Below, piece after piece: positions 5,559-20,522 of a stretch of DNA of 64,000 bases. Source of the DNA: an uncultured Solirubrobacterales bacterium (lineage in GTDB: Bacteria > Actinomycetota > Thermoleophilia > Solirubrobacterales > Solirubrobacteraceae); assembly GCA_963802655.1 (NCBI GenBank), contig CAWDJM010000016.1, positions 195,813 through 259,812 of the forward strand, given 5' to 3'. The notes under the pieces were generated by a model that saw only the letters and a list, made by a program, of their open reading frames with translations, did not search any database and had not been told where the DNA came from. The position numbers and the translations under genes were made by a program. How positions within the stretch are numbered: the stretch's first letter is position 1; each line of letters begins with the position of its first letter.

Positions 5559-6512
5559 ATGTCCGAGCCCGCGGATCGCCCGCTGCCCCCGCTGTCGCTG
5601 GCCGAATGGGAGCCGGCGAAGACCACGCTGCACCTGTGGACCCAGATCGTGGGCAAGATCAAGCTCGCGACCAGCCCTCCCCGCAATCACTGGTGGCATG
5701 TCCCACTGTACGTCGACGTGCGAGGCATGACCACGCGCCGGCTGCACGCGCCCAGCGGGATCACGTTCGAGATCGTGTTCGACTTGATCGACCACCGCCT
5801 GCAGGTGTTCACCAGCGAGGGCGGCAACGCGTCGTTCGAGCTCCACGACGGGCTCTCGGTCGCTGAGTTCGACGAGCAGCTGCACTGGACGCTGGCGACG
5901 CTCGACGTCGACGTGCAGATCCTCGAGCAGCCGTTCGGCGTGCCGATCACGACCCCGTTTCGCGAGGACCAGGAGCACGCCTCCTACGACCCGTCCGCGG
6001 TCACGCGCTTCTGGCGGATCCTCGACTGGACCGACGCCGTGTTCGAGCGGTTCGCCGGCTGGTACTGCGGCAAGACCAGCCCGGTCCACTTCTTCTGGCA
6101 TTCGTTCGATCTCGCCCTGACCCGCTTCGGCGGCCCCCGTGCGCCGGCGATCCCCGACGCCGATCCGGTGACCGCCGAGGCCTACTCGCACGAGGTCGTG
6201 TCGTTCGGGTTCTGGGCGGGCGACGCCAACGTCCGCGAGCCCACCTATTACGCCTACACCGCGCCGGAGCCGTCGGGCCTGCGCGACCGACCCCTGGCGC
6301 CAGGGGCCGCCCACTGGGTGCAGCAGGGCAGCGGCTCGATCGCGCTGCTGCCCTACGACGCGGTCCGCACCGCCGCCGACCCCGAGCGGGTGCTGCTCGC
6401 GTTCCTCCAGAGCGCCTATCTCGCCGGCGCCACCACGTCGGGGTACGACACCGACGACCTCACCTCGTCGTGGTGCCCAGCGCCGACCGCATCGGAGGGC
6501 CTCCTTGGCTGA
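5559..6512 (+). CDS. DUF5996-family protein
   Basis: TLHLWTQIVGKIKLATSPPRNHWWHVPLYVDVRGMTT and SPVHFFWHSFDLALTRFGG match my memory of DUF5996. ATG 5559 is preferred over GTG 5550 because GGAGG lies 8 nt upstream. Confidence 0.7.
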   Translation: MSEPADRPLPPLSLAEWEPAKTTLHLWTQIVGKIKLATSPPRNHWWHVPLYVDVRGMTTRRLHAPSGITFEIVFDLIDHRLQVFTSEGGNASFELHDGLSVAEFDEQLHWTLATLDVDVQILEQPFGVPITTPFREDQEHASYDPSAVTRFWRILDWTDAVFERFAGWYCGKTSPVHFFWHSFDLALTRFGGPRAPAIPDADPVTAEAYSHEVVSFGFWAGDANVREPTYYAYTAPEPSGLRDRPLAPGAAHWVQQGSGSIALLPYDAVRTAADPERVLLAFLQSAYLAGATTSGYDTDDLTSSWCPAPTASEGLLG

Positions 6513-7215
6513 CAGCACCGCGCAGCAGGCGGCGGCGAGCATCCGCCATCCGCTCACGATCACGCTGCTGACGCTGACGTTCTCGACCGGCCTGATCGAC
6601 GCCGCCAGCTACCTCGGGCTCGGTCGCGTGTTTACCGCCAACATGACCGGCAACGTCGTGCTGCTCGGGTTCGGTCTCGCCGGCGCGGGCGGCCTGCCGA
6701 TCATCTCGCCGATCCTGTCGCTGGCGGCGTTCCTGGTCGGCTCGGGGCTCGGCGCGGCGCTGGGTAGGCTGCCCGAACGGGCTCACACGGCCCACCTTGG
6801 GACGACGCTGACGCTCGAGGTGACGCTCGTGGCGGCGGCCGCGATCCTCGCGGCGACACTCGACGTGCACCCCAACACGTTCGCCGGCGACACGATGGTC
6901 GTGATCCTGGCGTTTGCGATGGGCGCCCGCAACGCCACCGTCAGGCGGATCGGTGTCCCCGACATGACCACGACCGTGTTGACGATGACGCTCACCGGGC
7001 TGGCCGCCGACTCGCGTCTGGCCGGCGGATCGGGGACGGGAACCGTCCGCCGGACGTCGGCCGTGGTGGCGATGCTCACCGGCGCGATCTCCGGCGCGCT
7101 CTTGCTCAAGTCGAGCCTGGCGCTACCGCTCGCGGTGGCGGCCGTGCTCGTGCTGGCCGCCGCGATCGCCTACGTGCCGCCGCGGCTGCGCGGGGAGGCG
7201 TCGGCTGCCGGCTGA
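6505..7215 (+). CDS. YoaK/DUF1275-family membrane protein
   Basis: 236 aa. The N-terminal motif is LTFSTGLIDAASYLGLGRVFTANMTGNVVLLG, with 6 predicted TM segments. The TTG start overlaps the upstream stop. Confidence 0.75.
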   Translation: MADSTAQQAAASIRHPLTITLLTLTFSTGLIDAASYLGLGRVFTANMTGNVVLLGFGLAGAGGLPIISPILSLAAFLVGSGLGAALGRLPERAHTAHLGTTLTLEVTLVAAAAILAATLDVHPNTFAGDTMVVILAFAMGARNATVRRIGVPDMTTTVLTMTLTGLAADSRLAGGSGTGTVRRTSAVVAMLTGAISGALLLKSSLALPLAVAAVLVLAAAIAYVPPRLRGEASAAG

Positions 7216-7910
7216 CGCCGGTACCCCCAGACCGCGTACCACACCGGGCCCGGCTCGACCGTCTCGGCGTCGGACAGCATCGCGATCCCGGCATCGACGT
7301 CGGGGTGCGGCGGCATCCGGTGGCGGACCGCCTCGATACCGAGCTTGAGGAGCTCGGCGTTGGCGGTCGCGCCCCTGATCACGTCGGCGTGGACGAGCCC
7401 GGCGATGTCCACCAGTCCGGCGTCCTCAAGCGTGCCGGGCAGCCTCCACGCCCACGAGTAGTCGGCGTCAGGTACCGCGTCGTGGAACGCTCGCCACATC
7501 GCGATCCAATCCGGGCTGCGTGACATGTGCACCGGGTCGGTGAACGGATCCTCGGCGATCAGTAATCCGCCGGGGACCAGCGCCGCAGTCATCGCCCGGA
7601 CGGCGTCGGCGGCACCCGGCCCGAGCTGGTGCAGCAGCGAGCGGCAGTGGATCAGGTCGTAGTGGTCGGCCTCGAGCTCGTCGTCGAGCTCGGCGGCCAC
7701 GACCGAGCCGTCGGGGCCGACGCGGTCGCGCAGCCAGCGGTTGATCGCGGCGCTCTCCGCCCCGAGCTCGAGGCACCGCGAGCCCGGCCACACGCCGACC
7801 CGGTCCAGAACGGTCACCGACCACGGGTCAAAGCCGTCGTGAGCCGTCGCGGCGACGGCGAGCGGATCCTCGTGCCGGGCGGTGTGGGAGTGGAGGCTGG
7901 AGAGCAACAT
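7170..7910 (-). CDS. class I SAM-dependent methyltransferase-like protein
   Basis: 246 aa. It has a Rossmann-like LELGAESAA segment (a degenerate motif I), then DLIHCRSLLHQL and ALVPGGLLIAED. Its 3' end overlaps the convergent gene by 46 nt. Confidence 0.55.
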   Translation of the reverse strand: MLLSSLHSHTARHEDPLAVAATAHDGFDPWSVTVLDRVGVWPGSRCLELGAESAAINRWLRDRVGPDGSVVAAELDDELEADHYDLIHCRSLLHQLGPGAADAVRAMTAALVPGGLLIAEDPFTDPVHMSRSPDWIAMWRAFHDAVPDADYSWAWRLPGTLEDAGLVDIAGLVHADVIRGATANAELLKLGIEAVRHRMPPHPDVDAGIAMLSDAETVEPGPVWYAVWGYRRQPAADASPRSRGGT

Positions 7911-7999
7911 TCGGGCTCGCGAAGGAACCTACGCGACCGGCGGGCGACGCACATCGGCCTGTGGTCGGATCTTGTGATCAGACTTTCGGAGGAGACGGA

Positions 8000-8833
8000 C
8001 TAAGCCGCGCTGTCAGCGGCGATCGCCTGCAGAAGCCTCGTCGCCGTGGCAGCGTTGGCCGGATAGAAGGCCTCGATCGACAGCTCCGCAAGCGTGATGT
8101 CGACCGCGGTCCCGAACGTGGAGATCGTGCCGAAGAACGCGAGCTCGTGGTCGCCCTCGCGAAGCCGCAGCGGCAGCACGATCTCGGCCCCGCTGATCCC
8201 GTCGTGCGGCGGCTCGGTGCTGGCCCCGGGATACGCCGAGAGCTCTTCGTGGAGGCGCTCGAGCTCGGGATCGCCGGTGACCGAAGCCTGGCGCGCCAGA
8301 CGGTGCATGAGGTGACCGCTCCACTCCTCGAGGTTGCTGATCCGGGGCGCCATCCCCTGCGGGTGCAGCGTGACGCGCAACGCGTTGGCGGGTGGCTCGA
8401 GCAACTCGGGGGCGACGCCTTCGGTCAGCAGCGAGAGCGCGTCGTTGCCCGAGATCAGGTTGTAGTGGCGGTCTACGACCACCGCGGGATACGGCTCGTG
8501 CGCCCGCAGAAACCGGTCCAGCGCCTGACGCACCGGCGCCATCTCAGGGGTCTCGAGCTGGCGCTCGGCGTACTGGGGCGCGTAGCCGGCCGCGAGCAGC
8601 AGCCCGTTGCGGTCGCGCAGCGGGACTTCGAGATGCTCGGCCAGGTGGAGGACCATCTCGCGGCTGGGACGGGCGCGCCCGGTCTCGAGGAAGCTCACGT
8701 GGCGGGATGAGACGTCGGCGTTCAACGCGAGCTCCAGCTGGCTGAGGCTGCGGCGCTGCCGCCACGTCCGCAGCAGCTCTCCGACCGGCGGCCGGGAGTC
8801 CCTGACTCCGGCCTCTGCTGTGGTGACTGCCAT
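8000..8833 (-). CDS. MmyB-like XRE-family HTH transcriptional regulator
   Basis: 277 aa. The HTH is LRTWRQRRSLSQLELALNADVSSRHVSFLETGRARPS, followed by the MmyB-type C-terminal ligand domain. Confidence 0.8.
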   Translation of the reverse strand: MAVTTAEAGVRDSRPPVGELLRTWRQRRSLSQLELALNADVSSRHVSFLETGRARPSREMVLHLAEHLEVPLRDRNGLLLAAGYAPQYAERQLETPEMAPVRQALDRFLRAHEPYPAVVVDRHYNLISGNDALSLLTEGVAPELLEPPANALRVTLHPQGMAPRISNLEEWSGHLMHRLARQASVTGDPELERLHEELSAYPGASTEPPHDGISGAEIVLPLRLREGDHELAFFGTISTFGTAVDITLAELSIEAFYPANAATATRLLQAIAADSAA

Positions 8834-8862
8834 GGCCGCAAACCTAGCGCGGTTGCGGCGGC

Positions 8863-8891
8863 CGCACGATTACCCGGGAGGTAATCGTGCG
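8863..8891. promoter_or_regulatory. perfect palindrome CGCACGATTACC-N5-GGTAATCGTGCG (operator or terminator candidate)
   Basis: 12-bp perfect arms read directly from the sequence. It lies between the MFS stop (8913) and the start of the MmyB-like regulator (8833). It shares the ATTACC-N5-GGTAAT core with the sites at 10387..10440. Confidence 0.5.
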
Positions 8892-8912
8892 GCGCCCCGC
8901 GTGCGCCCACGC

Positions 8913-10355
8913 TCATGCCTGCGCCCGCTTCGGGAGCAGCCGGGTGAGCCCCGCCACGGCCAGCAGCAGCGCCGCCAGTTCGGCCAGGCTCAGCTCGAGC
9001 GCGTGGGCGTAGCCGCCGTGCAGCGCGCCGAAGAAGATCACGCCGGTGATCGCCACCCCGAGCGCGGCGCCGACGTTCTGCATCGTGGTCAGCGCTCCCG
9101 AGGCGGCGCCGGCGTACTCGGCCGGGACGCTCGACAGGATCGTCGTGGTCAGCGGCACGATCAGCAGGCCCATCCCCGCGCCGATCGCCAGCAGGCCCGG
9201 CACCAGCGCCAACACCGAGCCGCCGACGCCGACGTCGGCCACGGCGGCGAGCAGCAACCCGTGGCCGGCCGCTAGCACCAGCGCCCCGATCGCCAGCAGC
9301 CGGCGCCCGTGACGGGCGATCAGCTGCGGCGCCCGCACGGACGTGACCACGTAGGAGACCGCGAGGATCGTGAACACCAGGCCGGAGTTCATCGCGCTCA
9401 GGCCGCGCCCCTGCTGCAGGTACAGCGCGAGCACGAGGAAGAACGACGCCTGGCCCGACCAGAACGCCAGCTGGGTCAGCAACCCGGCGCTGAACGCCCG
9501 GGCCCGGAACAGCGCCGGCGCCATCACCGGCTGCCCCCCGCGCGCGGCCAGGCGCCGCTGGTGGGCGGCGAAGCCGATCAGGATCAGCGGCGCGATCCCG
9601 AGCGACACCCAGGTCCACAGCGGCCAGTCGTGCTGGCGTCCCTCGACCAGGGGCAGCACCACCGCGGTGATCCCGGTCGTGAGCAGCGCCGTCCCGACGA
9701 GGTCGAGCCGGCTGCCCTGCTCCGAGCGCGACTCGGGCACCACCCGCCGGGCCAGGAACACCGCCACCAGTCCGATCGGCACGTTGATCAGAAAGCAGCT
9801 GCGCCAGCCCAGCCCGGCGATGTCGGCCTGGATCAGCGCCCCGCCGATCAGCTGGCCGCTGACGGCCGCAAGCCCCATCACGAGCCCGTAGGCGCCGAGC
9901 GCCTTGGCCAGGTCGGGGCCCTCGTAGGTGACGCCGATGATCGCCAGCACGTTGGGCATCAGCAGCGCAGCGCCGATGCCCTGGACCAGCCTCGCGAGCA
10001 CCAGGATCTCCGGGCTGCCGGCGACGCCGCAGGCGGCCGAGGACAGCGTGAACACGGTCAGCCCCAGCACGAACGTCCGGCGGCGGCCGATCTGGTCGCC
10101 GAGCCGCGCGGCGACGATCAGGAACACGGCCGAGGTGAGCGCGTAGCCGGCCACGACCCATTCGATCGCGCCGCCGCTGGCGTGCAGCTCGACCTGCATC
10201 GACGGCAGCGCGACGTTGACGATGAAGAAGTCCAGCACGACCATGAACGTGCCGGCGAGCACGACCGGCAGCGCCGCCCACCTGCTCGCCCGCGCCCGGG
10301 CGAGGCCCGCGAACAAGGGTGCCGGGAGAGTTGATGTGTTCTGTTGTGTGGTCAT
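8913..10355 (-). CDS. MFS transporter, DHA2 (EmrB/QacA-like) family
   Basis: 480 aa and 14-TMS-like, with the motif ARLGDQIGRRRTFVLGL. It is a paralogue type of the 394..1890 gene. Confidence 0.85.
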   Translation of the reverse strand: MTTQQNTSTLPAPLFAGLARARASRWAALPVVLAGTFMVVLDFFIVNVALPSMQVELHASGGAIEWVVAGYALTSAVFLIVAARLGDQIGRRRTFVLGLTVFTLSSAACGVAGSPEILVLARLVQGIGAALLMPNVLAIIGVTYEGPDLAKALGAYGLVMGLAAVSGQLIGGALIQADIAGLGWRSCFLINVPIGLVAVFLARRVVPESRSEQGSRLDLVGTALLTTGITAVVLPLVEGRQHDWPLWTWVSLGIAPLILIGFAAHQRRLAARGGQPVMAPALFRARAFSAGLLTQLAFWSGQASFFLVLALYLQQGRGLSAMNSGLVFTILAVSYVVTSVRAPQLIARHGRRLLAIGALVLAAGHGLLLAAVADVGVGGSVLALVPGLLAIGAGMGLLIVPLTTTILSSVPAEYAGAASGALTTMQNVGAALGVAITGVIFFGALHGGYAHALELSLAELAALLLAVAGLTRLLPKRAQA

Positions 10356-10386
10356 GCCGCCAAGTTGCCGGTCGCGCGGGCCCGTG

Positions 10387-10869: not shown

Positions 10870-11197
<328 letters not shown>

Positions 11198-11205
11198 CCC
11201 CGGCG

Positions 11206-11922
11206 CTACCCCCAGAGGTGCTCGAGCACCGCCAGGTTGAACGCGTCGGCTTGCTCGACGTTGGCCAGGTGCGCGGCGCCGTCGAGCACCCGCAGCTGAG
11301 CGTCTGGGACGCGGGCGGCGATCAGCTCGGCGGCCACCGGCGGCGTCGCGGTGTCGTGCGCGCCGGCGACCACCAGCGTGGGCGCGCGGATCTCGCGCAG
11401 CCGCTCCCGCAGGTCGAACCGTCCGGCGGCAGTCAGCGCTAGCGCGTACTCCTCGCGCGGTTTGTCGAGCTGCATCCGCAGGAACGCCTCGCGGTCGGCG
11501 AAAGCGGGCGTGAACCACGACTCGAGCATCCCTGGCGCGACCGTATCGACCCCGCCCGAGCGCACCAGCGCGATCCGCTCGTTGCATTCGGTCTCGTGCC
11601 CCAGCCGGGCCGACGTGCAGGCGAGCACCAGCCGGTCGATCCGGTTGGGCGCCGCGGCCGCGATCGTCATCCCCACCATCGCGCCGAGCGAGAGCCCGCA
11701 GAACGAGAACCGCCGCACCCCGACGCGGTCGAGCGCGTCGACGATCGAGTCGGCCAGCTCACTCACCGACGGTCGGGCGGCGTGCTCGTAGCGCACCACC
11801 GCGAACCGCCGCGCGAATGCGTCGACCTGGCGGTCCCACATCTGCGACGAGGCGCCGAGCGCGTTGGACAGCACCAGCGGCGGCGCGCCCTCAGGTCCGA
11901 TCACGGTCAGGTTGATCGTCAT
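11206..11922 (-). CDS. alpha/beta-fold hydrolase (3-oxoadipate enol-lactonase-like)
   Basis: 238 aa with a GLSLG nucleophile elbow and the C-terminal GAAHLANVEQ motif. Its ATG overlaps the stop of the upstream ABC ATPase (ATGA). Confidence 0.8.
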   Translation of the reverse strand: MTINLTVIGPEGAPPLVLSNALGASSQMWDRQVDAFARRFAVVRYEHAARPSVSELADSIVDALDRVGVRRFSFCGLSLGAMVGMTIAAAAPNRIDRLVLACTSARLGHETECNERIALVRSGGVDTVAPGMLESWFTPAFADREAFLRMQLDKPREEYALALTAAGRFDLRERLREIRAPTLVVAGAHDTATPPVAAELIAARVPDAQLRVLDGAAHLANVEQADAFNLAVLEHLWG

Positions 11923-12896
11923 ACCGGCGACGGGGTTGTGTCCTGGATCTCGGCCGCGGCGGACCCGGGGAAGCAGACGCCTCCGGTCACGCGCACGCGC
12001 ACCTGGTCGCCGGTCGCCGGGCCGGGCAGCGGCGACACCGCGTAGAGCCTGCCCTCGTCGAGCGTGAGCTCGAGCCGAACGCCGTCCTCCAGCGGAATCG
12101 ACCGGGACACGCGCGCCCGCAGCGGGCCCTCAGGGTCGAGCGTCACGTGGTGTGATCGGACGAGCTGGACCTCGCCGGTTGGCAGCGACAGCGTTCCGTC
12201 GAAGCCCAGAAAGCGCGCCACCTCGACCGTCGGCGGACGCTCGAGCAACTCGCGCGGGGGCCCGTCGGCGACCAGCCGCCCCTCGAGCAGCACCAGCAGC
12301 CGGTCGGCCAGCGCCCACGCCTCGGCCCGGTCGTGGACGACTACCAGCGCGGCCGTGGTCCAGGCGCGCAGAGCGGCTCCCGTGTCGTCGAGCATCGCCG
12401 CCCGCGTGGCCGCGTCCAGGCCGGCAAACGGCTCGTCGAGCAACAGCACGTCCGGTCGCACCGATACCGCCCGCGCCAGGTGCACGCGTCGGCGCTCGCC
12501 GCCCGACAGCGTGCTCGCGGCGCGACCCCGTAGGTGATCGGCCTTCATCGCCGCCAGCGCCCCGGCCGCCCGCTCGCGCCGCTGCGCCCGGGGCACGCCC
12601 CACCAGCCGAGCGCGAGCTCGACGTTGGCAGCGACCGTGCGGCGCGCCAGATCCGGCGACTGCAGCGCCAGCGCCACTCGACCCGAGCGCGTGATCTTCC
12701 CGCTCGCTGGCTCCAGCGATCCCGCCAGCGCCTCCAGCAACGTGCTCTTGCCGGCGCCGTTGGGCCCGAGCACGGTGACGAGCTCGCCGGCCCGCAGCTC
12801 GAAGCTCACGTCGCTGACCACCTCACGGCTGCCGCGGCGCAGGCTCAGGTGCCCGCAGCCCAGCATCGGATCGCCCGCGGCCGCGGCCATGCTCAC
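11919..12896 (-). CDS. ABC transporter ATP-binding protein, TupC-like, with C-terminal TOBE-like extension
   Basis: Walker A GPNGAGKST, signature LSGGERRRV and Walker B LLLDEP are present, followed by about 90 aa of beta-rich tail. GTGA overlap with the upstream permease stop. Confidence 0.85.
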   Translation of the reverse strand: MSMAAAAGDPMLGCGHLSLRRGSREVVSDVSFELRAGELVTVLGPNGAGKSTLLEALAGSLEPASGKITRSGRVALALQSPDLARRTVAANVELALGWWGVPRAQRRERAAGALAAMKADHLRGRAASTLSGGERRRVHLARAVSVRPDVLLLDEPFAGLDAATRAAMLDDTGAALRAWTTAALVVVHDRAEAWALADRLLVLLEGRLVADGPPRELLERPPTVEVARFLGFDGTLSLPTGEVQLVRSHHVTLDPEGPLRARVSRSIPLEDGVRLELTLDEGRLYAVSPLPGPATGDQVRVRVTGGVCFPGSAAAEIQDTTPSPV

Positions 12897-13621
12897 GTCG
12901 CCGCCGCCGTCCGGAACCGCAGCCGCAGGCCGCCGCCCTGTTGCTGGAGCAGGCTGAGGCCGCCCATCAACAGCAGGATCAGGACGATCAGCACGAGCCC
13001 GGCCGCCACCGCGTACTCATACCGCGACTGGTTGACGTAATACAGCGTCGAGCTGGCGAGCGTCTGGTCGTAGCCGTAGACGTTTCCGCCCACGATCACG
13101 ATCGCTCCGACCTCCGACAGGCTCGTCCCCAGCGACGCGATCAGGGCCGCCATCACGCCGATCCTAGCTTCGCGCAGGGCCAGGACCGAGAGCTGGAAGC
13201 CACCGGCGCCGAGTAGGCGAGCCTGCCCCACAAGCCCCGACGGGAGGCCCTGGATCGCGGCCGCGCCGAGCGCAACGACGTAGGGCAGCGCGAGCACCGT
13301 CTGCGCGACGAACACCGCCTTCCGAGTGACCGTCAGGTGAAGCCCACCGAGCGGACCCTGCGGCACGAACAGCAGGAACAGGATGAAGCCGACGACCACC
13401 GGCGGCAGCGCGAGGCTGGCGTTCGCGAGCACCTGGAGGGCACGCCGTCCCGGGAATCTCCCCAACCCGATCAACAGCGCGATCGGCAGCCCGATCACGG
13501 CCGCGCACGCGGTCGCCACGACCGCGACCTGGATCGTGAACGAGATGATCTTCCACAGCGTCGGATCGCCATGGAAGATCAGCGGCACCGCGTGGCGGAA
13601 CTCGTCCCACAGCAGCCCCAT
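12893..13621 (-). CDS. ABC transporter permease, TupB-like (copy 2)
   Basis: 242 aa. It has the EAA-loop-type segment ARLLGAGGFQLSVLALREARIGVMAALIASLGTSLSEVGAIVIVGGNV, characteristic of tungstate-type permeases. Confidence 0.85.
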   Translation of the reverse strand: MGLLWDEFRHAVPLIFHGDPTLWKIISFTIQVAVVATACAAVIGLPIALLIGLGRFPGRRALQVLANASLALPPVVVGFILFLLFVPQGPLGGLHLTVTRKAVFVAQTVLALPYVVALGAAAIQGLPSGLVGQARLLGAGGFQLSVLALREARIGVMAALIASLGTSLSEVGAIVIVGGNVYGYDQTLASSTLYYVNQSRYEYAVAAGLVLIVLILLLMGGLSLLQQQGGGLRLRFRTAAAT

Positions 13622-13622
13622 C

Positions 13623-14345
13623 TCAAGCCCCCCGGAAGCGCAGCCGCAGGCCGCCGCCGCGCTGCTGCAGCACGGTCAGGATCCCCACCAGCAGCAGGAT
13701 CAGCACGAGCAGCACGATCGCGATCGCCAGGCCATAGGGATAGTCGACGTAATCGTTGACCTGCTGGAGCACGGCGCTGGCCAGCGTCTGGTCGTAGTTC
13801 TGGATGTTGCCGCCGACGATCACCACCGCACCGACCTCCGACAGGGCCGCCCCGAGCGCCGCGATCACCGCCGCGAACACTCCGATCCTGGCCTCGCGCA
13901 GCGCCAACAGCCCAAGCTGCCAGCGGCCGGCGCCGAGTAGCCGCGCCTGGGCCAGCAGCCCGGGCGCCAGGCCCTGCACCGCGGCGGCGGTCAGCGCGAC
14001 GATGTAGGGCAGCGCCAGAACCGTCTGGGCGACGTACACCGCCTTGAGCGTGAACGCGATGTGCATACCACCGAACAACCCGTTCGGCAGCGCCAGGAGC
14101 AGTACACCGAGTCCCGCCAGCACCGGCGGCAGCGCCAGGCTGGCGTTGGCCAGCACCTGCAGCGCGCGTCGCCCCCGGAAGCGGCCGAGCCCGATCGCGA
14201 GCCCGATCGGCAGGCCGATCACCAGCGCGATCGCGGTCGAAACGAATGCGACCCGAAGCGTCACCCACAGGAGGGCGCGAATGTAGCCGTCCCCGCTGAA
14301 GATCAACGGGATCGCCTGCCGTAGCTGATCCCAGAGGTACGACAT
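13623..14345 (-). CDS. ABC transporter permease, TupB-like (copy 1)
   Basis: 240 aa and a clear paralogue of 12893..13621 (ARLLGAGRWQLGLLALREARIGVFAAVIAALGAALSEVGAVVIVGGNI). Confidence 0.85.
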   Translation of the reverse strand: MSYLWDQLRQAIPLIFSGDGYIRALLWVTLRVAFVSTAIALVIGLPIGLAIGLGRFRGRRALQVLANASLALPPVLAGLGVLLLALPNGLFGGMHIAFTLKAVYVAQTVLALPYIVALTAAAVQGLAPGLLAQARLLGAGRWQLGLLALREARIGVFAAVIAALGAALSEVGAVVIVGGNIQNYDQTLASAVLQQVNDYVDYPYGLAIAIVLLVLILLLVGILTVLQQRGGGLRLRFRGA

Positions 14346-14681
14346 TCAGCGCCGTTTCTGCGGGGGAGCGTTCTGAACGTAGACCAGCTGGCCGTTGTCG
14401 AGCCGGTAGACCACGCCGGCCTGCGTTCCACGGCCGATCGTCCGCTGGCCGGGTTTGGGCAGCGGCGCCACCGTCTGGCCGGGCTTGACGGTGACCTGCT
14501 TCGCCGGGTTCGCCTTCAGGCCGGTCTTGGTGATCGTGCCCTCGAGGTGCAGCGAGGACAGCGCGGCCAGCAGGAACGCCACCGACAGCACGATCCCGAG
14601 GTCGAACAGGTTCACCAGACCGTCGAGCGGGTCTCCGGCACGGTCCTCGCGGCGGCGCGAGCGGGGGGTGACGCTGATCAT
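14346..14681 (-). CDS. DUF2149 / ExbD-TolR-like single-pass membrane protein
   Basis: 111 aa. DPLDGLVNLFDLGIVLSVAFLLAAL resembles the ExbD/TolR N-terminal anchor, followed by a small periplasmic-type domain. ATGA overlap with the upstream MotA/ExbB-like gene. Confidence 0.65.
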   Translation of the reverse strand: MISVTPRSRRREDRAGDPLDGLVNLFDLGIVLSVAFLLAALSSLHLEGTITKTGLKANPAKQVTVKPGQTVAPLPKPGQRTIGRGTQAGVVYRLDNGQLVYVQNAPPQKRR

Positions 14682-15430
14682 GCGGTGGCCTTGTCGGTCG
14701 GTGTGGTGCGCGGATCGTTGAGGATCGCCGCGATGTACTCGAGGTCTGAGAGGTCCTGCCCGTACATGTTGTCGCGCGATAGCGAGAGGCCGAACGCGAC
14801 GGCTCCGACGAGCAACCCGACGACGGTCACGCTGAACGCGACCTGGAGGTTCGAGCTCAGCGCGGCGGTGTTGCCGTTGGCGAGCCCGGTCAGCGCGGGC
14901 GACAGCGGGATCAGCGTGCCCATCAGCCCCAGCGCCGGACCGGCCCGCACCAGCAGCCGCGTGCGCCCGAGCCGCCGCTGGGCGTCGAAGTCGAAGTCGG
15001 CCAGCGCCTTGTTGATCTCGTGGTCGCTGCCGTCGGTCCGCGAGTGCTCGACGATGAACGCGAGCGTGCCCGCCATCGCCTGGCTCTGCGCGAGGCCGCT
15101 GACCGCCGCCTCCGCGCCCTGGCGGTCGCCCTGCAGCAGCGCCTCGCGCGCCCGCTCGGCCCCGCTCGACAGCACCGCGTACCGGCGCCGCCGGCGGCCG
15201 CGCAGCTCGATCACAAAGCTGCCGAGCTCGAAGATCACCAGCGCAAGCGCGACCAGCGCGAGGATCAGCACGGGCACGCGCAGCGCGTTGGCGACGTGGA
15301 AGATGACCTCGTCGATGTCGTGGGTGGTGAGGGCGAAGATCACGAGAACGTCGGCGATGGTGCCACGGCCCTCAGTGGTTGTCCAGTAGTAGGGTCGCAC
15401 CGAGAGGTGACACCGGTGGATGGATCGCAA
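14678..15430 (-). CDS. MotA/TolQ/ExbB proton-channel family protein
   Basis: The C-terminal signature is LVRAGPALGLMGTLIPLSPALTGLANGNTAALSSNLQVAFSVTVVGLLVGAVAF. The start is uncertain. ATG 15430 and GTG 15400 lie inside the repeat element, so GTG 15343 is a plausible true start. Confidence 0.75.
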   Translation of the reverse strand: MRSIHRCHLSVRPYYWTTTEGRGTIADVLVIFALTTHDIDEVIFHVANALRVPVLILALVALALVIFELGSFVIELRGRRRRRYAVLSSGAERAREALLQGDRQGAEAAVSGLAQSQAMAGTLAFIVEHSRTDGSDHEINKALADFDFDAQRRLGRTRLLVRAGPALGLMGTLIPLSPALTGLANGNTAALSSNLQVAFSVTVVGLLVGAVAFGLSLSRDNMYGQDLSDLEYIAAILNDPRTTPTDKATA

Positions 15431-15510
15431 GGACGCAGGACCGAATGCGTAGCGGAGCTACGTCGAGGTCGACGCCGCGAGCCGCCGCCGGGGGCGACTC
15501 GAATGCGACC
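15392..15510 (+). repeat. palindromic repeat element, core copy (related to 35275..35447)
   Basis: The outer stem is GGGTCGCA...TGCGACC and the central hairpin is GCGTAGC-GGA-GCTACG (15447-15462). By eye the left arm and loop are about 80% identical to 35301-35367, in the same orientation. Confidence 0.7.
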
Positions 15511-15530
15511 GTGCTTGCGTGGGCGGCCAC

Positions 15531-16931
15531 TCAGTGGGCGGTACGCGAGCGGCGGCGGCCGCGCAGTTCGTGCCACGCGCCGAGGCCGAGCAATGCGGCT
15601 ACCGCCAGCCCGGCGCCGATCGCGGTCAGCGGCGATGTGGTCACGCTCGTGGCCTGCCGTACGGTCGGCGCGGCGGACGCGGTGGCGGGCACGAGCGGGC
15701 TCGAGCTCTGCGGCAGCGGCGTGACGTCCGCGATCAGCCTGCCGGTGACCAGCGGGCCGGTTGCGGTCGGAGCGGGCTTGTGTGAGGTGGTCCGCTTCGG
15801 GGGCGCACGGTGGGGAGTCGGCGGCGCGGGCGTGGTCGTGGGCGTGGTGGTGGCCGGCGTGGACGCGGTCGGCGTGGTGGTCGTCGATGTGGAGGACTGC
15901 GGCTTTGGCTGCTGGCCGCTCGACGTCGGACTGGACTGTCCTGACGAGTAGCCATTCTGGTTCGAGTTCCCGGACTGCTTGGAGCCGCCGGTGCCGGGGT
16001 TCTGGTTGGGCCCGCCGTTGTCCTTGCCGGTCGGGGACTTCGAGTTCGTGTGCTTGTGGCCGCCGCTCTGTTTGTGGTTGCTCGGAGCGGGTTGGGTAGG
16101 GGTCGTGACCCGGGTCGTGGCGGTGCCCGCGTTGCCGCTCGCCGGGTCGGTCACCTGAACGCTCACGAAGTACGAAGCCCAGGTTGACCCGTGGACGACG
16201 CTGGCCTGCGTCGACGTCTTTCCAGTGTCCTGAAACGTCCATTGCCACTTCAGCGAGGACGGCGGGACGGCGGCCCCGTCGGAAGTGACCGACGCTGAAA
16301 ACTTCAATGCCGTACTGCCTGGGACCGAACGTGTCTTGACCAAGACCGCCAACGGCTGGCTCTTAACCCAAACCAGGATCGTGATCGGCCCGTCGGCGGT
16401 GACGCTGTCCTTGCTGTTGTCATCGCTGCCCCCGCGAAACGGCCGGGCATAGTAGTTGGGACCTGACGGACCGTTGGACGCGATAACCGGCACCGCACCC
16501 GGGTCCTGTGGGTCGTGGTAACTCGTCGGGTCGACTAGATCGGCGTTGGATAGGGGATCTTCGAACCCACTTCCGTTTGCCCGTTGCACCTGAACGTTCG
16601 TCACGTCACTGGTCGGGATCTGCAGGGCGCAGCTGAGCACGGTCGCCAGCGTCCAAGTGGAGCCCGACGGCAGGTTGCCGCCGGGGGACGGTGGGGGTAC
16701 GTACAGCTGGGTCTCGTCGGTCGCCTGACACTCCTGTAGAGCCTGCAGCGCGAGCACGCGTGTGCCCGAGCCCGGATACACGGTCGCGCTGACCACGGGC
16801 ACATCGGCGGACGCGGTCGCCGCCGCGCACGCCGCGACCACCAGCGAGCCCGCGAGCGATAACCACAACCGCCGCCCCGGGAAAACCCCGGGGCGGCGGT
16901 TGAAAGAGCTCCCAGATTGGGTCCGGCGCAA
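15531..16931 (-). CDS. exported PKD-like / Pro-Thr-Ser-rich protein with C-terminal membrane anchor
   Basis: 466 aa. It has a signal peptide (LWLSLAGSLVVAACAAATASA), a PKD-like stretch LKWQWTFQDTGKT...VSVQVTDPASGNAGTATTRV, and a long low-complexity linker rich in S, T, P, G, N and Q. A terminal TM helix is followed by RGRRRSRTAH. Confidence 0.7.
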   Translation of the reverse strand: MRRTQSGSSFNRRPGVFPGRRLWLSLAGSLVVAACAAATASADVPVVSATVYPGSGTRVLALQALQECQATDETQLYVPPPSPGGNLPSGSTWTLATVLSCALQIPTSDVTNVQVQRANGSGFEDPLSNADLVDPTSYHDPQDPGAVPVIASNGPSGPNYYARPFRGGSDDNSKDSVTADGPITILVWVKSQPLAVLVKTRSVPGSTALKFSASVTSDGAAVPPSSLKWQWTFQDTGKTSTQASVVHGSTWASYFVSVQVTDPASGNAGTATTRVTTPTQPAPSNHKQSGGHKHTNSKSPTGKDNGGPNQNPGTGGSKQSGNSNQNGYSSGQSSPTSSGQQPKPQSSTSTTTTPTASTPATTTPTTTPAPPTPHRAPPKRTTSHKPAPTATGPLVTGRLIADVTPLPQSSSPLVPATASAAPTVRQATSVTTSPLTAIGAGLAVAALLGLGAWHELRGRRRSRTAH

Positions 16932-16934
16932 GGC

Positions 16935-19016
16935 CTACTTGACGTTGATCGTCTTGAGGCCCGAGTTGCTCGAGGCAAGTCCGTTCTGGTTGTTCACCAG
17001 CCGGAGCACCCAGCGCACGCCCTGCTTGAGCTTGAAGTGCGCCGTGAACGCGGTCTTGCCCTGCTTGACCTTGACCTTGGCCTTCTCGCCGAAGCTGGCC
17101 GAGCCGCCGGACGTCCGCATCGCGAGGACCTCGAGGGTCGCGCCGCCCTTGACGGCACCGGGCTTGATCGCGCCGTTGAGCGTGACCGAGCCCTTGTTGA
17201 CCTTGACCGACTTGAAGCTGACGCCGGTCTTGGGCTTGGCCTTCACGTTGACGTTCGTGGTGCGCGTACGCGCGGCCGTGACGACCTTCGAGTCGCTGTA
17301 TTTGACCTGGAGCAGCCACTTGCCCGGCGCGAGCTTCGCGACCGCCGCGAAGTTGGCGTCGTTGGCGGCCAGCTTCGTTGTGGCGACCTTCTTGAAGCCC
17401 TTCTTCGATCCGACCTGCTTGGCCAGGATCGTGACGGCTGCCTTGCTGGAGTGGCTGTTGCCCGGTGACACCGTTCCGAAGATCAGCGCCTGACCGGTCT
17501 GCGCCCGCACGTTGAGCTTCGTGATCGCGCTGGTGACCGAGACCTTGGACTGAGCGGTCACGGCCGGCGACAGCAGGTCGCCGAACACCGGGTTCAGCTT
17601 GCTGTCCTCGATCATGGAGATCTGTGCGGTCGACACCACGTAGTTGCCGGTCTTGGGCGGGACGAAGCTGATGCTGAACTTCCCGTTGCCGTCCGTCTTG
17701 CCCTTGGCGACCTGCACCTGCACGTTGCCGTTGAGGTTGGCGATCGAGACCTGCTTGCCCGACAGCACCGGATAACCGGGCTGCGCGTTGGTCAGCGTGC
17801 CCTTCACGGTCACCTTCTTGCCGGCGGCGGCGACGAACTTCCCGGGGAATCGCGTGCCCGACAGGAGCGGCGACGCGGTCGGCGTGAACGGAGCGCCGCC
17901 GGTGTCGGCGGTGTGGGCCAGGTAGGCGCCGACCTGCTTCTGCACGTCCGGCGACGTGATGTAGTTCATGAACGCCTGAGCGGCGGGCAGATTCACCGTC
18001 TGGCCGGGCTTGTTCGGATTGATGATGTAGCCGTGGAAGTAGTTGATCAGCTCGAACTGACCACCGGGCGCCGAGGCGCTGTTGTCACGCGAGACGATCG
18101 TCAGCGCCGGAATCGCCCCGGCCGGGTCGGTCCCGGACGCGAGGTAGTCATACGTGCCGCGGTCGGTGAACACGTAGCACGAGTTGGGGCCGCTGGGGAA
18201 GCCGTTGCAGGCGTTGGCCGCCTGTACGTTGGGACCCTGGGTCAGGCCCGTGGCCACGTACCACTTCGGCAGCGCGGCGCCCTTGGGCAGCGCGCCGGCG
18301 CCTGGGCACTCCTGGCCGGAGGCGGTCACGCCCTGGCCTGCCGCGATCGGGGTCCACCCACCGCCGTTGGCGGAGCTGACCCCGCACAGCAGCAACCCGG
18401 CCGGACTTAGACCCGACTGCGCCATCAGCTGCCAGATCAGGTGCTCCTGGACGGTCGTGCCGGGGGTTCCCCCGCGGGACACGAACGTCGACTTACCGGC
18501 GATCCCGGACGCCGCGACGCCGGCGAATGCCCGCGCGATGTCGTGAAGGCCAGTGGTCTTGACGCCCGCCGGATCGGCGTTGGGTCCGCCGAGCACGAAG
18601 TCGTTGATCCACAGCGCGCGGCCGTACTGCTCCTGCGAGTAACCGTTCGCGACGAACTGGTTCTCGAGCGAGGCGGCGTGGACGATCAGGACGCTGGCGC
18701 CGGCGGAGCCGGACTCGGCAGTCGAGATCGCGTTACCGGTCCCGGTCCCGATGTACTTGAACGCGTACTGGGGGAACTGCTTCTGGAAGCCGGGCTGGAT
18801 CACATTTGGAATCAGTCCGGAGTCACTCACGTCGCTCGTACCGATGACGGTCAGAGTCGACGACGTATCGGCGCTCGCCATCCCAGGAGCGATCATCATG
18901 ATCGCGGCCGCGGCGAGGGCCAGGACGGGAGCCAGGACTATCTTTCGTGCCCCGACTCGTCCCGGTGTTTGGCGCGTCCATCCGAGACGGCAGCGCGGGA
19001 TAAGTATTTCAAACAT
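16935..19016 (-). CDS. TupA-like periplasmic-binding-protein domain fused to three Ig-like beta-sandwich repeats (exported)
   Basis: The signal peptide is ...VLAPVLALAAAAIMMIAPGMASA. The PBP part contains LTVIGTSDVSDSGL and KSTFVSRGGTPGTTVQEHLIWQL (compare TupA FISRGD.SGTH..E..LW). The C-terminal roughly 300 aa is repetitive and K/V/T-rich, in CarboxypepD_reg-like modules. ATG 19016 is the only canonical start that retains the signal peptide. Confidence 0.75.
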   Translation of the reverse strand: MFEILIPRCRLGWTRQTPGRVGARKIVLAPVLALAAAAIMMIAPGMASADTSSTLTVIGTSDVSDSGLIPNVIQPGFQKQFPQYAFKYIGTGTGNAISTAESGSAGASVLIVHAASLENQFVANGYSQEQYGRALWINDFVLGGPNADPAGVKTTGLHDIARAFAGVAASGIAGKSTFVSRGGTPGTTVQEHLIWQLMAQSGLSPAGLLLCGVSSANGGGWTPIAAGQGVTASGQECPGAGALPKGAALPKWYVATGLTQGPNVQAANACNGFPSGPNSCYVFTDRGTYDYLASGTDPAGAIPALTIVSRDNSASAPGGQFELINYFHGYIINPNKPGQTVNLPAAQAFMNYITSPDVQKQVGAYLAHTADTGGAPFTPTASPLLSGTRFPGKFVAAAGKKVTVKGTLTNAQPGYPVLSGKQVSIANLNGNVQVQVAKGKTDGNGKFSISFVPPKTGNYVVSTAQISMIEDSKLNPVFGDLLSPAVTAQSKVSVTSAITKLNVRAQTGQALIFGTVSPGNSHSSKAAVTILAKQVGSKKGFKKVATTKLAANDANFAAVAKLAPGKWLLQVKYSDSKVVTAARTRTTNVNVKAKPKTGVSFKSVKVNKGSVTLNGAIKPGAVKGGATLEVLAMRTSGGSASFGEKAKVKVKQGKTAFTAHFKLKQGVRWVLRLVNNQNGLASSNSGLKTINVK

Positions 19017-19575
19017 GCGCCGAATATATAGGCATTGCTTAGGCAAACACGGTTCCCACTCGTATTCAGACCGCGTGGCTGGCCCCGCTGAGACCCGTGC
19101 AAGACCTAGATGCAGGCTGGCGTTCCGCCCGTTGATCGGGATCGCCGTCGCCGTCGCGGTCACGGCGTGCGGCAGCTCCTACACCAAGCAGGATTTCATC
19201 GCCCGCGCTAACGGGATCTGCACCGACACGCTGGGCCAGACCCGGGCGATCGCGCCGTCCGGCGCGCCCCAGAGCAACCGAGCCCTGGCTGCCTACCTGC
19301 GCCAGGTGCAGCCGATCCTCCAGCAGGAGGCGACCCAGCTGCGAGCCCTGCGGCGACCGCCCGGCAGCGACGCCGACAAGGCGGCGCTCGACCGCTACCT
19401 GTCGGCGCTCGACGGCCAGGTGGCCGCGACCAAGCGACTGCGGGACGCCGCCGCCCGTAACGACGGCGACGGGGTGTCCGCGGCCGAGAACGACCTGCAG
19501 GCGAGCCAGGCCGCCTCGCTGGCCGCGAGGTACGGCCTGAAGTCCTGCGCAGCGCCTGGCTCGACCGCCGTCTGA
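19015..19575 (+). CDS. putative lipoprotein, function unknown
   Basis: Lipobox AVAVTACGS, followed by a helical domain with paired Cys residues (ICTD...LKSCAAP). The start is uncertain. ATG 19015 is the only canonical start upstream of the signal peptide, and TTG 19132 is an alternative. Confidence 0.55.
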   Translation: MRRIYRHCLGKHGSHSYSDRVAGPAETRARPRCRLAFRPLIGIAVAVAVTACGSSYTKQDFIARANGICTDTLGQTRAIAPSGAPQSNRALAAYLRQVQPILQQEATQLRALRRPPGSDADKAALDRYLSALDGQVAATKRLRDAAARNDGDGVSAAENDLQASQAASLAARYGLKSCAAPGSTAV

Positions 19576-19599
19576 GGCGGTACCGTCCGGGTCAACGTA

Positions 19600-19995
19600 A
19601 TGCCCCCGGATCTGTCACTCGGCGAAGCGGCGGCGGCGCTCGGCGTCAGCGTCGACACGCTGCGCCGGTGGGACCGCAACGGCCGCCTGCGGACCAAGCG
19701 CGACAGCCGCAACCGCCGCCTGGTGCCCGCGTCGGAGATCCGCCGCCTCAGCGCGCGCCCGACTCGGCACCGGACCGGCACCGAGGGCTCGGCGCGCAAC
19801 CGCTTCAGCGGGGTCATCCGCTCGGTCGAGGCCGACGGAGTGATGGCGCTGGTCGAGCTCGAGGCCGGCCCGTTCCTGGTCACAGCGGCGATCACCCGGG
19901 ACTCGATCGAGGAGCTCGGCCTGGCCGCCGGCGTCGAGGCGACCGCGGTCGTCAAGGCCACCTCGGTGATGATCGAGCGCGGCGGGACCGCCTAG
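19600..19995 (+). CDS. MerR/excisionase-type HTH fused to Mop/TOBE molybdate-binding domain (ModE-like regulator)
   Basis: 131 aa. The HTH is LGEAAAALGVSVDTLRRWDRNGRL, and the Mop part is SARNRFSGVIRSVEADGVMALVELEAGPFLVTAAITRDSIEELGLAAGVEATAVVKATSVMI. Confidence 0.8.
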   Translation: MPPDLSLGEAAAALGVSVDTLRRWDRNGRLRTKRDSRNRRLVPASEIRRLSARPTRHRTGTEGSARNRFSGVIRSVEADGVMALVELEAGPFLVTAAITRDSIEELGLAAGVEATAVVKATSVMIERGGTA

Positions 19996-20522
19996 CCCGA
20001 GCCCAGCAGCTCGTCGATGAACCTGATCGCCGCCCGCGTCGACTCGAGCCGCCACCTGATCAGCACCCGGTCGAACCCGTCGGCGGCCTCAGCCGCCTCC
20101 TCCAGCCGGCGCTCCTGAGCCGAGAAGCTCTCGCGCTGGGCATCAAGCAGCGGTGCCGGGTCCTGGCCGCGCCTGCTGAGGAACAGGAGCTTGAGCATCA
20201 GCAGCGAGCGCGCCTCGCGCACGTGACCGACCGGCTCCACCAGCCACTCGTCGACGGCCGCACGCCCGCCGTCGGTCGCCGCGACCACCGTGCGCCGCGG
20301 GCCCGAGGGGCTGGGCACGGTCCCGGTCGGCGCCGCGAACCCCATCTCCGACAGCGAGTCGATCGCCCGGTAGACGAGTGGGCGCCGGACCGACCACACC
20401 TTGCCGATCTCGCCGTCGGGCGCGAGCGCGCGGCCGACCGCGAACCCGTGCGTCGGCTCCTCGGCCAGCAACGCCAGCACGGCCCAGTCGCCGGCTCCGA
20501 GTTCGTACCGTGATCGCGCCAT
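19992..20522 (-). CDS. PadR-family transcriptional regulator
   Basis: 176 aa. The winged helix is WAVLALLAEEPTHGFAVGRAL...WSVRRPLVYRAIDSLSEMG. Confidence 0.85.
   Translation of the reverse strand: MARSRYELGAGDWAVLALLAEEPTHGFAVGRALAPDGEIGKVWSVRRPLVYRAIDSLSEMGFAAPTGTVPSPSGPRRTVVAATDGGRAAVDEWLVEPVGHVREARSLLMLKLLFLSRRGQDPAPLLDAQRESFSAQERRLEEAAEAADGFDRVLIRWRLESTRAAIRFIDELLGSG

Follow-up and report, generated by a model that had tools for sequence, protein, structure and literature searches.

A candidate proton-driven stator module within a TupABC-like importer operon of a monoderm actinobacterium

Stators of the ExbB/TolQ/MotA type are textbook power sources for outer-membrane or flagellar events. 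What might such a motor pair be doing inside the operon of an ATP-binding cassette (ABC) importer, in a bacterium without an outer membrane? The question is posed by positions 11206-19995 of a 64,000-nucleotide stretch (the window; G+C ~71%) on contig CAWDJM010000016.1 of an uncultured member of Solirubrobacterales, an order that we take to be a Gram-positive, single-membrane (monoderm) group. The minus strand encodes there, in this order, a TupA-like binding protein, a PKD-bearing stalk protein, a MotA/ExbB-like membrane protein, a DUF2149 protein, two TupB-like permeases, an ABC ATPase and a hydrolase. A first-pass annotation, made from the sequence letters, had listed these eight open reading frames (ORFs), all of which are present at the coordinates given. 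It had also suggested a composite machine, in which a stator driven by the proton motive force (PMF) is joined to the ABC importer or to the large surface proteins encoded with it. This suggestion is supported by comparative genomics, the source of all the support that we can offer for a module of this kind within an importer, and the constant partner of the stator appears to be the stalk protein. We regard the chances as evenly balanced that a PMF stator module is functionally coupled here to uptake by a TupABC-type oxyanion importer.

Close contigs come from uncultured Solirubrobacterales of soil metagenomes (lineage Actinomycetota, Thermoleophilia, Solirubrobacterales). Two ENA contigs, L002 and L003, match 11 kb around the operon at 99.6-99.9% identity, and the DUF2149 protein is 100% identical to the one encoded on CAWHRT010000018.1. 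For the wider comparison we used the best 80 of at least 588 DUF2149-encoding genomes, one genome per GTDB species, with 10-kb flanks on each side of the gene. The DUF2149 query alignment was built from representatives of 50%-identity clusters, and the ORFs of the loci were searched with the window proteins as queries, which gave the counts per 80 loci reported below. Ratios of nonsynonymous to synonymous substitution rates (dN/dS) are Nei-Gojobori estimates for the operon genes against three sister species. No description of such an operon type was found in the literature on DUF2149, on ExbB in Actinobacteria and monoderms, or on stator phylogeny.

Conservation of the motor-like pair and its stalk protein

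The MotA-like gene adjoins the DUF2149 gene in 79 of the 80 loci, a TupB-like permease gene lies directly 3' of DUF2149 in 75, and the ATPase is present in 72; a TupA-like protein is encoded upstream in 66/80, the misses being mostly short contigs. The order binding protein, stalk, MotA, DUF2149, permease(s) and ATPase is kept in 75/80 species and in at least five actinobacterial lineages, with loci spanning many Solirubrobacterales together with Conexibacteraceae, Nocardioides, Frondihabitans, Mycobacteriales and Frankiaceae. The pair is thus conserved beside ABC genes in relatives (a lack of such conservation would have refuted the first-pass idea), and the MotA and permease counts rule out chance adjacency. 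Two permeases are encoded in 61/80 loci, and Nocardioides, Frondihabitans, Mycobacteriales and Frankiaceae have a single one. Because the distant genera have one permease (and the regulator gene downstream), we read the two-permease state as a lineage-specific duplication. The hydrolase had been counted as a member of the system. It follows the ATPase in only 4/80 genomes and is for this reason better viewed as a lineage-specific passenger, outside the conserved system.

Might the ExbB-like gene and its partner be a vestigial Ton remnant, or a chance insertion, with no function? ExbB-type homologues in monoderm Actinobacteria are regarded as probably non-functional, and the incomplete Ton systems found there have been called "likely non-functional" (PMC12204202). 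In this strain, furthermore, a 147-nt insertion lies just upstream of the MotA gene. The selection estimates argue in the opposite direction. The dN/dS values of DUF2149 (0-0.06) and MotA (0.07-0.22) are as low as those of the permeases (0.06-0.12; the ATPase is at 0.13-0.15), and hence the two genes are kept by selection and are not vestigial. Their ORFs are intact, the gene order is kept in 79/80 species, and the catalytic-type residues are invariant. We consider loss of function very improbable, and the combination of 79/80 conservation with low dN/dS effectively refutes it. A stator under purifying selection in monoderm importer operons contrasts with the published non-functional view (PMC12204202). 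The stalk gene has the highest dN/dS in the operon (0.40-0.56), fast evolution being expected of an exposed protein.

The MotA/TolQ/ExbB-like label was confirmed by the profile searches, which agreed with the earlier labels for the operon proteins. The window protein scores 34 bits against MotA_ExbB (PF01618; cut-off 22.9), and orthologues from loci L074 and L104 score 32-33 bits. It has the three-helix layout of ExbB/TolQ, and its motifs R.LV..GP.LGL.GTLIP and AF..T..G, in transmembrane (TM) helices 2 and 3, are invariant from Actinomycetota to a sphingomonad. The downstream partner scores 57.9 bits against DUF2149 (PF09919; cut-off 27.1), and Pfam returned DUF2149 only. This small protein has a single TM helix behind a basic N-terminus, and a short beta element on the extracytoplasmic side; N24 and F26 are invariant, and Asp27, within the TM helix, is found in at least 90% of the sequences. 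An AlphaFold2 (AF2) model (mean predicted local distance difference test score, pLDDT, of 67.5) has a helix at residues 18-47 (pLDDT 85-93) and three short strands. A single N-in TM helix with a conserved acidic residue is a trait of ExbD and TolR, and DUF2149 has it. We liken DUF2149 to a B subunit because of its basic N-terminus, its TM helix, the near-invariant Asp and the translational coupling of its gene to the MotA gene. We infer from these features that MotA/DUF2149 works like an ExbB/ExbD pair, with DUF2149 as a functional analogue that is not filed in the ExbD family. The ATGA-coupled gene, the TM2/TM3 motifs and Asp27 would fit a proton-conducting stator of five MotA and two DUF2149 subunits (5:2). 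The PADLOC defence models, which include Zorya-type stators, gave no match for MotA, DUF2149, the stalk or the binding protein.

The third constant element is the stalk gene, which is always the immediate 5' neighbour of MotA. The window protein reaches 23.8 bits against PKD_4, below the cut-off of 27; its orthologues reach 40-68 bits, and a profile of the stalk orthologues matches the PKD domains of the collagenases ColG/ColH at 1e-16 to 1e-26. The earlier description as a PKD/Pro-Thr-rich protein with a C-terminal anchor is therefore solid at the level of the family. The encoded proteins share one plan, in which a signal peptide, a globular head and an Ig-like domain precede a Pro/Thr-rich linker, a C-terminal TM helix and a basic tail; linker, TM helix and tail are present in 63 of the 71 testable loci of this clade, and an iterated hidden Markov model of the window head plus PKD domain finds homologues in 72/80 loci, including four in which stalk, MotA and DUF2149 stand without ABC genes. 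The head carries a conserved RP(L/W/F)R...D.N motif. After the linker, the best-conserved parts are a C-terminal VxGxL(I/L) segment and the end of the TM helix (LL..GA..E.R), the Glu of which is kept from Solirubrobacterales to Aeromicrobium and Frondihabitans. This pattern of conservation points to a triad of stalk, MotA and DUF2149 as the conserved core, and to the stalk, not the ABC genes as such, as the constant partner of the putative stator. An impression that the stalk head resembled a sulfite-oxidase/YedY-type domain was dropped, as neither Pfam nor the PDB supported it. At the triad of Aeromicrobium stalagmiti (L074, positions 7960-10371) the flanking genes encode a TetR regulator and a ferredoxin-reductase-like protein; none of the four triads has ABC genes within 10 kb. 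Upstream of the Aeromicrobium triad, two "large proteins" on the plus strand were discarded as shadow ORFs of minus-strand genes, on the evidence of third-position codon GC.

The binding protein, the permeases and their likely substrate

What would the importer carry? Among solved structures, the binding domain is closest to tungstate-binding TupA (3lr1 and 5my5; E ~1e-15). The residues proposed for the tungstate pocket of TupA are the TTTS motif, His59, Arg118, Thr124 and Asp170 (PMC5517513; 5my5 numbering). The equivalents of the four single residues do not vary among 18 orthologues, which represent all lineages. TTTS is replaced in these orthologues by an invariant GTSD, which puts an Asp where TupA has an anion-facing Ser (PMC5517513). 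The motifs VGTSDvxDSGL, LIVHAasLENQFV, FVSRGGTPGT and TDRGTY are invariant in the same set. Against the TupA equivalog model NF041772 the protein scores 60.3 bits, by its N-terminal lobe only, and the cut-off is 400. Judged by its GTSD motif and its basic beta-sandwich tail, the binding protein is a distinct TupA-like subfamily and not a TupA equivalog. In this tail, three Ig-like repeats had been described. Profile support, itself weak, extends to the first module only (CarboxypepD_reg 22-24 bits, Big_1 18 bits), the other two being inferred by eye. The last 293 residues have a net charge of +36. A type-I signal peptide is present in every orthologue, a lipobox or a TM anchor in none, so that in a monoderm the wall or a partner must keep the protein in place.

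The permeases belong to BPD_transp_1 and are 65% identical to each other. Both pass the NCBIfam model NF038017 (ABC_perm1 subfamily) at ~150 bits (149.5 for permease 1; cut-off 100). The best specific models are TupB and then ModB, both below cut-off: the permeases score 115 (permease 1) and 109 bits against the TupB equivalog NF041773, with a cut-off of 320, and permease 1 scores 86 bits against ModB. The ATPase assignment stands on a strong ABC_tran match (Table 1); the TOBE-like tail attributed to it reaches 19.9 bits against TOBE_2, under the cut-off of 21.

A MerR-type helix-turn-helix (HTH) regulator with a Mop domain had been placed immediately upstream of the operon and divergent from it. 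It is divergent, and its Mop domain passes the cut-off (TIGR00638, 59.5 bits against 55), with TOBE at 58 bits and MerR at 38.7 bits; it is not immediately adjacent, as a lipoprotein-like ORF lies in between. The protein has SARN and VKATSV motifs. Compared with ModE-like regulation by molybdate or tungstate (Mo/W), the Mop domain is present and the DNA-binding domain is of the MerR type, not the ModE type. We predict from these domains that the MerR-Mop protein is a molybdate/tungstate sensor.

The Tup-like assignment of binding protein and permeases is thus supported, by the four kept pocket residues, by the TupB/ModB-like permeases and by the nearby Mop regulator. Because of these four TupA pocket residues and the Mop-domain regulator, a group-6 oxyanion (the tungstate/molybdate class) is the most economical guess as to the substrate. 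Another oxyanion, of the vanadate, chromate, sulfate, phosphate or arsenate class, or a complexed form, is a less likely possibility that we still take seriously, and it would be compatible with the coupling model. The scores far under the TupA and TupB equivalog cut-offs favor it, as do the invariant Asp of GTSD at the anion-facing Ser position, the lack of Mo-enzyme genes nearby and an Rfam scan of the window, which found no riboswitch and in particular no molybdenum-cofactor (Moco) riboswitch. It has to contend with the four invariant pocket equivalents, with nearest solved relatives that bind tungstate, with a regulator whose Mop domain exceeds the curated cut-off and has the SARN motif, and with permeases for which TupB and ModB are the highest-scoring models.

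The system has the general build of TupABC (and also ModABC and WtpABC): a binding protein of the PBP_like_2 family in a type-I ABC importer, the His, Arg, Thr and Asp pocket residues, a TupB/ModB-like permease, an ATPase with a TOBE-like tail, and a putative Mop-domain regulator. It differs from TupABC in its scores far under the equivalog cut-offs, in GTSD for TTTS, in its two permease paralogues, in the basic beta-sandwich extension of ~290 residues on an unanchored binding protein, and in the three extra genes inside the operon. A subfamily of GTSD-type, tail-bearing binding proteins would be of relevance to Mo/W acquisition in abundant soil Actinomycetota.

The pair in other uptake systems and a possible mode of action

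When metagenomes were scanned with a divergent subgroup of DUF2149, a second clade of loci came to light (L089-L167; freshwater and sediment metagenomes, G+C 0.70). The gene order there is DUF4430 proteins, a fused double ABC ATPase, a protein resembling the S-component of energy-coupling factor (ECF) transporters, stalk, MotA and DUF2149, as seen for example at L104 770-8495 and L145 4636-8531. Domains of the DUF4430 type form the C-terminus of transcobalamins (PMC4350170). The stalk of this clade, encoded directly before MotA, has an alpha/alpha-toroid head and Big_13, then a linker rich in Pro and Thr and a TM helix at the C-terminus; linker, TM helix and basic tail are present in 30-34 of 36 testable loci. 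Rfam found no riboswitch in eight second-clade loci, and no cobalamin riboswitch within 8 kb. At a sphingomonad locus (L087) the genes encode a TonB-dependent receptor, a 193-residue polytopic protein, MotA, DUF2149 and CobN. With queries from L087, no CobN or HmuT-like ORF was found in the second-clade loci; its TonB-dependent receptor, used as a query against the second-clade loci only, gave no match either. In Bacteroidota the MotA/DUF2149 pair is HmuU/HmuV of the haem operon hmuYRSTUV, with a role called unclear (PMC12583661, PMC12094164). That operon is strongly iron-regulated, and the roles proposed for HmuU/HmuV include powering of HmuR and inner-membrane transport. The DUF2149 proteins of the actinobacterial and Hmu-type groups are ~30% identical. 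In the actinobacterial loci the pair is flanked by stalk and permease genes, not by CobN or HmuT-like genes, and, as judged from the conserved gene order, neither the operon nor the 20-kb locus of any of the 80 relatives encodes a TonB protein or a TonB-dependent receptor. As far as gene neighborhoods tell, the recurring theme is the attachment of MotA/DUF2149 to high-affinity uptake of scarce metals or cofactors, and the monoderm-type clades always pair it with a C-terminally anchored stalk protein.

Comparison with known machines frames how such a module might act. It shares with TonB-ExbB-ExbD and TolA-TolQ-TolR a MotA/ExbB-family protein with a single-pass membrane-Asp partner, a third protein, anchored in the membrane, whose Pro-rich spacer extends into the envelope, and the setting of scarce-nutrient uptake that feeds an ABC transporter. 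It differs from them in having no TonB/TolA homologue, no receptor and no outer membrane, and the topology of the stalk (C-terminal anchor, N-terminal head) is opposite to that of TonB/TolA. The HmuT/HmuU/HmuV systems have in common with it the MotA/TolQ/ExbB-family HmuU, the DUF2149 protein HmuV directly downstream, and a high-affinity uptake system. Their hosts are diderm, with a TonB-dependent receptor, a CobN-like dechelatase and a polytopic membrane protein, whereas the present operon has no outer membrane, receptor or CobN to work with, its upstream partner is the single-pass stalk, and its neighbors are ABC genes. Gram-positive wall relays that feed ABC importers are known as well, namely the NEAT-domain haem relay Isd and the actinobacterial "anchored repeat-type" ABC transporters (TIGR03771 family). 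These share with the present system surface-displayed proteins encoded beside an ABC importer in monoderms. They are sortase-anchored and have no PMF-driven component, whereas here a TM helix serves as the anchor, next to the putative stator.

In the model that we propose, MotA/DUF2149 would be a proton-driven stator in the cytoplasmic membrane, and the stalk head, held off the membrane by the long Pro/Thr-rich linker, would be displayed in or beyond the wall. Proton flow through the stator would perform mechanical work on the TM helix and the juxtamembrane segment of the stalk, and this work might drive an extracytoplasmic step that is out of the reach of ATP. In such a step the binding protein, unanchored and associated with the wall, could release its very tightly bound oxyanion or pass it on to the permease. 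Alternatively, the capture proteins could be pulled back through the wall. The MerR-Mop regulator would switch the operon by Mo/W supply. This pulling model, by analogy a monoderm counterpart of TonB action with a transducer in reverse topology, is tentative, and we hold it to be somewhat improbable as it stands. We are just as guarded about the broader proposal that the triad may be an unrecognized class of PMF-to-envelope force transducer, operating without an outer membrane, in which a 5:2-type proton motor would pull C-terminally anchored, wall-spanning capture proteins for primary-active importers. Should it be true, the class would feed TupABC-like Mo/W importers here and an ECF-like system with transcobalamin-like proteins in the sister clade, and HmuU/HmuV would supply the energy so far unaccounted for in the extracytoplasmic steps of haem uptake by Bacteroidota.

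Two other accounts of the pair have to be weighed against coupling to uptake. The triad might be an autonomous envelope module, for Tol-like positioning of wall or surface proteins or as an adhesin, that travels with the importer genes as a co-regulated companion and energizes no transport. Triads without ABC genes nearby exist (L066, L074 from Aeromicrobium stalagmiti, L077 and L078), the pair has other partners (the TonB-dependent receptor and CobN in the sphingomonad, ECF-like genes in the second clade), and the stalk evolves fast, as exposed surface proteins do. Yet the triad genes sit between the binding-protein and permease genes, with stops and starts that overlap or abut, and this internal position is kept in 75/80 species across orders. 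The neighbors, whether in the two monoderm clades or in the Hmu-type loci of diderms, are always genes for the uptake of scarce cofactors or metals, never for envelope biogenesis. We therefore rate an autonomous module as unlikely. The second account would make MotA/DUF2149 an ion channel or PMF sensor, which gates or regulates the importer or provides protons for anion release without mechanical work on the stalk. It draws on the DUF2149 ectodomain of ~65 residues, which has no recognizable peptidoglycan- or partner-binding fold, and on the lack of an encoded TonB/TolA-like protein. It fails, however, to explain the strictly conserved upstream stalk with its conserved TM end, and all characterized MotA/ExbB/TolQ members are, to our knowledge, force-generating stators. 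A channel or sensor is in our estimate a distinctly poor candidate, behind the autonomous module.

Several results weigh against the coupling of a stator to uptake. The four triads without ABC genes indicate that the module can evidently serve other functions, and the canonical TupABC and ModABC importers function without such a module. Against the PDB, the MotA-like protein gave a best E of 0.27, a marginal match to solved MotA structures. The earlier label "DUF2149/ExbD-like" held for the DUF2149 family and had no sequence support for ExbD: the DUF2149 profile, compared with all PDB chains up to an E of 10, matched no ExbD, TolR or MotB and returned noise only. The modelled DUF2149 ectodomain is tiny and of low confidence. 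Three stalk head domains gave no match in Pfam at E up to 10, the head has no relative in the PDB either, and an AF2 model of the stalk head (7 homologues retrievable) has a mean pLDDT of 51.6, with the PKD part alone credible. The 147-nt insertion 5' of MotA could disturb expression coupling in this strain. Lastly, the substrate may differ from that of the Tup family, given the distance of the binding protein and permeases from the TupA/TupB equivalogs and the change of TTTS to GTSD.

The superfamily of every part is already known, and the MotA/DUF2149 pair is catalogued in hmu operons. What is new is the module inside an ABC importer operon of bacteria without an outer membrane, the stalk as third component, and the GTSD-type binding protein with its tail. 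We see a substantial chance that the operon represents a new class of envelope energy transduction. Its conservation suggests that PMF may be used for extracytoplasmic capture of trace nutrients even where there is no outer membrane. It names a conserved third partner of the motor pair, the stalk protein, and it offers a testable role for DUF2149 and for HmuU/HmuV in the Bacteroidota of gut and mouth. Culturable carriers are at hand in Frondihabitans sp. PhB188, Nocardioides and Aeromicrobium stalagmiti.

Gene junctions, upstream element and flanks

The features of the locus are collected in Table 1, and the junctions described below were taken straight from the nucleotide sequence.

Table 1. 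Features of the importer locus in window coordinates
Feature	Position	Strand	Basis or remark
Alpha/beta hydrolase, PcaD-like	11206..11922	-	NCBIfam score below cut-off
ABC ATPase with weak TOBE-like C-terminal domain	11919..12896	-	ABC_tran 99.7 bits
TupB-like ABC permease 2	12893..13621	-	Paralogue of permease 1
TupB-like ABC permease 1	13623..14345	-	NF038017
DUF2149 protein, 111 residues, putative B subunit	14346..14681	-	PF09919
MotA/ExbB/TolQ-family membrane protein, 221 residues, putative stator A subunit	14678..15343	-	PF01618
Strain-variable 147-nt insertion	~15379..15525		CCACTGAG direct repeat at flanks
Stalk protein (signal peptide, head of ~150 residues, PKD, Pro/Thr/Ser-rich linker of ~140 residues, C-terminal TM, Arg-rich tail)	15531..16931	-	
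TupA-like solute-binding protein, secreted, C-terminal extension of ~290 residues (beta-sandwich/Ig-like)	16935..19016	-	PBP_like_2 59 bits
Promoter/operator-like element	19017..19047	-	Conservation; function inferred
Small lipoprotein-like ORF, start codon uncertain	~19075..19575	+	Called in sister contigs
MerR-type HTH plus Mop/TOBE regulator	19600..19995	+	Profile scores

The tight packing noted at first, with overlaps or gaps of 0-3 nt, holds at six of the seven junctions of the operon. The binding-protein and stalk genes are separated by 3 nt (TAG-GCC-TTG; 16935/16931), the stop and start codons of DUF2149 and permease 1 abut with zero gap (TGA, ATG; 14346/14345), and 1 nt lies between the two permeases (TGA-G-ATG; 13623/13621). 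The MotA and DUF2149 genes share an ATGA overlap, as do the ATPase and hydrolase genes; permease 2 and the ATPase share a GTGA overlap, which turns into a 2-nt gap should translation begin at the ATG at 12890. The sole exception is the gap of ~187 nt between the stalk and MotA genes of this strain. The 147-nt insertion, with duplicated CCACTGAG on both sides, fills most of it. It is absent from L002, where the flanks are 99.8% identical and the gap is 27 nt, and present in L003, and a partial copy (66 nt, 83% identical) is found 20 kb away at window positions 35302-35367. It is possibly a small mobile element. The start of MotA is most likely the GTG at 15343, giving 221 residues as in sister contigs, rather than the TTG at 15430.

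At the 5' end of the operon, the element TTTGCCTAAGCAATGCCTATATATTCGGCGC (19017..19047, minus strand) abuts the ATG of the binding-protein gene at 19016. Its consensus, TTTGCCTA(A/G)GCA-N3-GCCTATATATTCGGCG, is common to eight species (the window and at least seven others), and the element is kept even in two species whose binding-protein gene now lies 3' of the ATPase gene; some copies hold a perfect TGCCTAGGCA palindrome. We take the ATG at 19016 as the start because the conserved element abuts it, and this abutment in eight species suggests a leaderless promoter with an operator. The binding protein is thus probably translated from a leaderless start, with the element as promoter and palindromic operator. 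A scan for consensus sigma-70 promoters and terminators gave nothing above chance.

The lipoprotein-like ORF between operon and regulator has the same direction as the regulator. It encodes a lipobox (VTAC) and a predicted helical protein with two Cys, for which no Pfam or PDB relative was found. Homologues occur near the operon in 54/80 loci, and the protein may be a further component of the system. Their positions vary: upstream and divergent, upstream and co-directional, or downstream. A homologue of the MerR-Mop regulator lies within 10 kb of the operon in 40/80 loci, divergent or downstream. The end of the MerR-Mop gene overlaps, convergently, a PadR-like regulator gene (window 19992-20522, minus strand). 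The PadR-like gene has homologues in 14/80 loci and is probably unrelated to the system.

On CAWHRT010000018.1, the GTDB representative contig from a long-read metagenome-assembled genome (L001/L007, positions 5735-9234), the binding-protein and stalk genes are split into several ORFs. Both genes are intact in the window, in L002 and in L003, and the splits are probably homopolymer assembly errors, not real pseudogenes. The 3' flank of the operon (window 10870-11200) is intergenic and dense in repeats, and the length of this spacer differs in sister strains. It contains two tandem units of ~57 nt (10946-11002 and 11004-11060), each a hairpin of 21-23 bp, followed by ~13 copies of CCGCCCGA and ~5 copies of CGGACCGAG.

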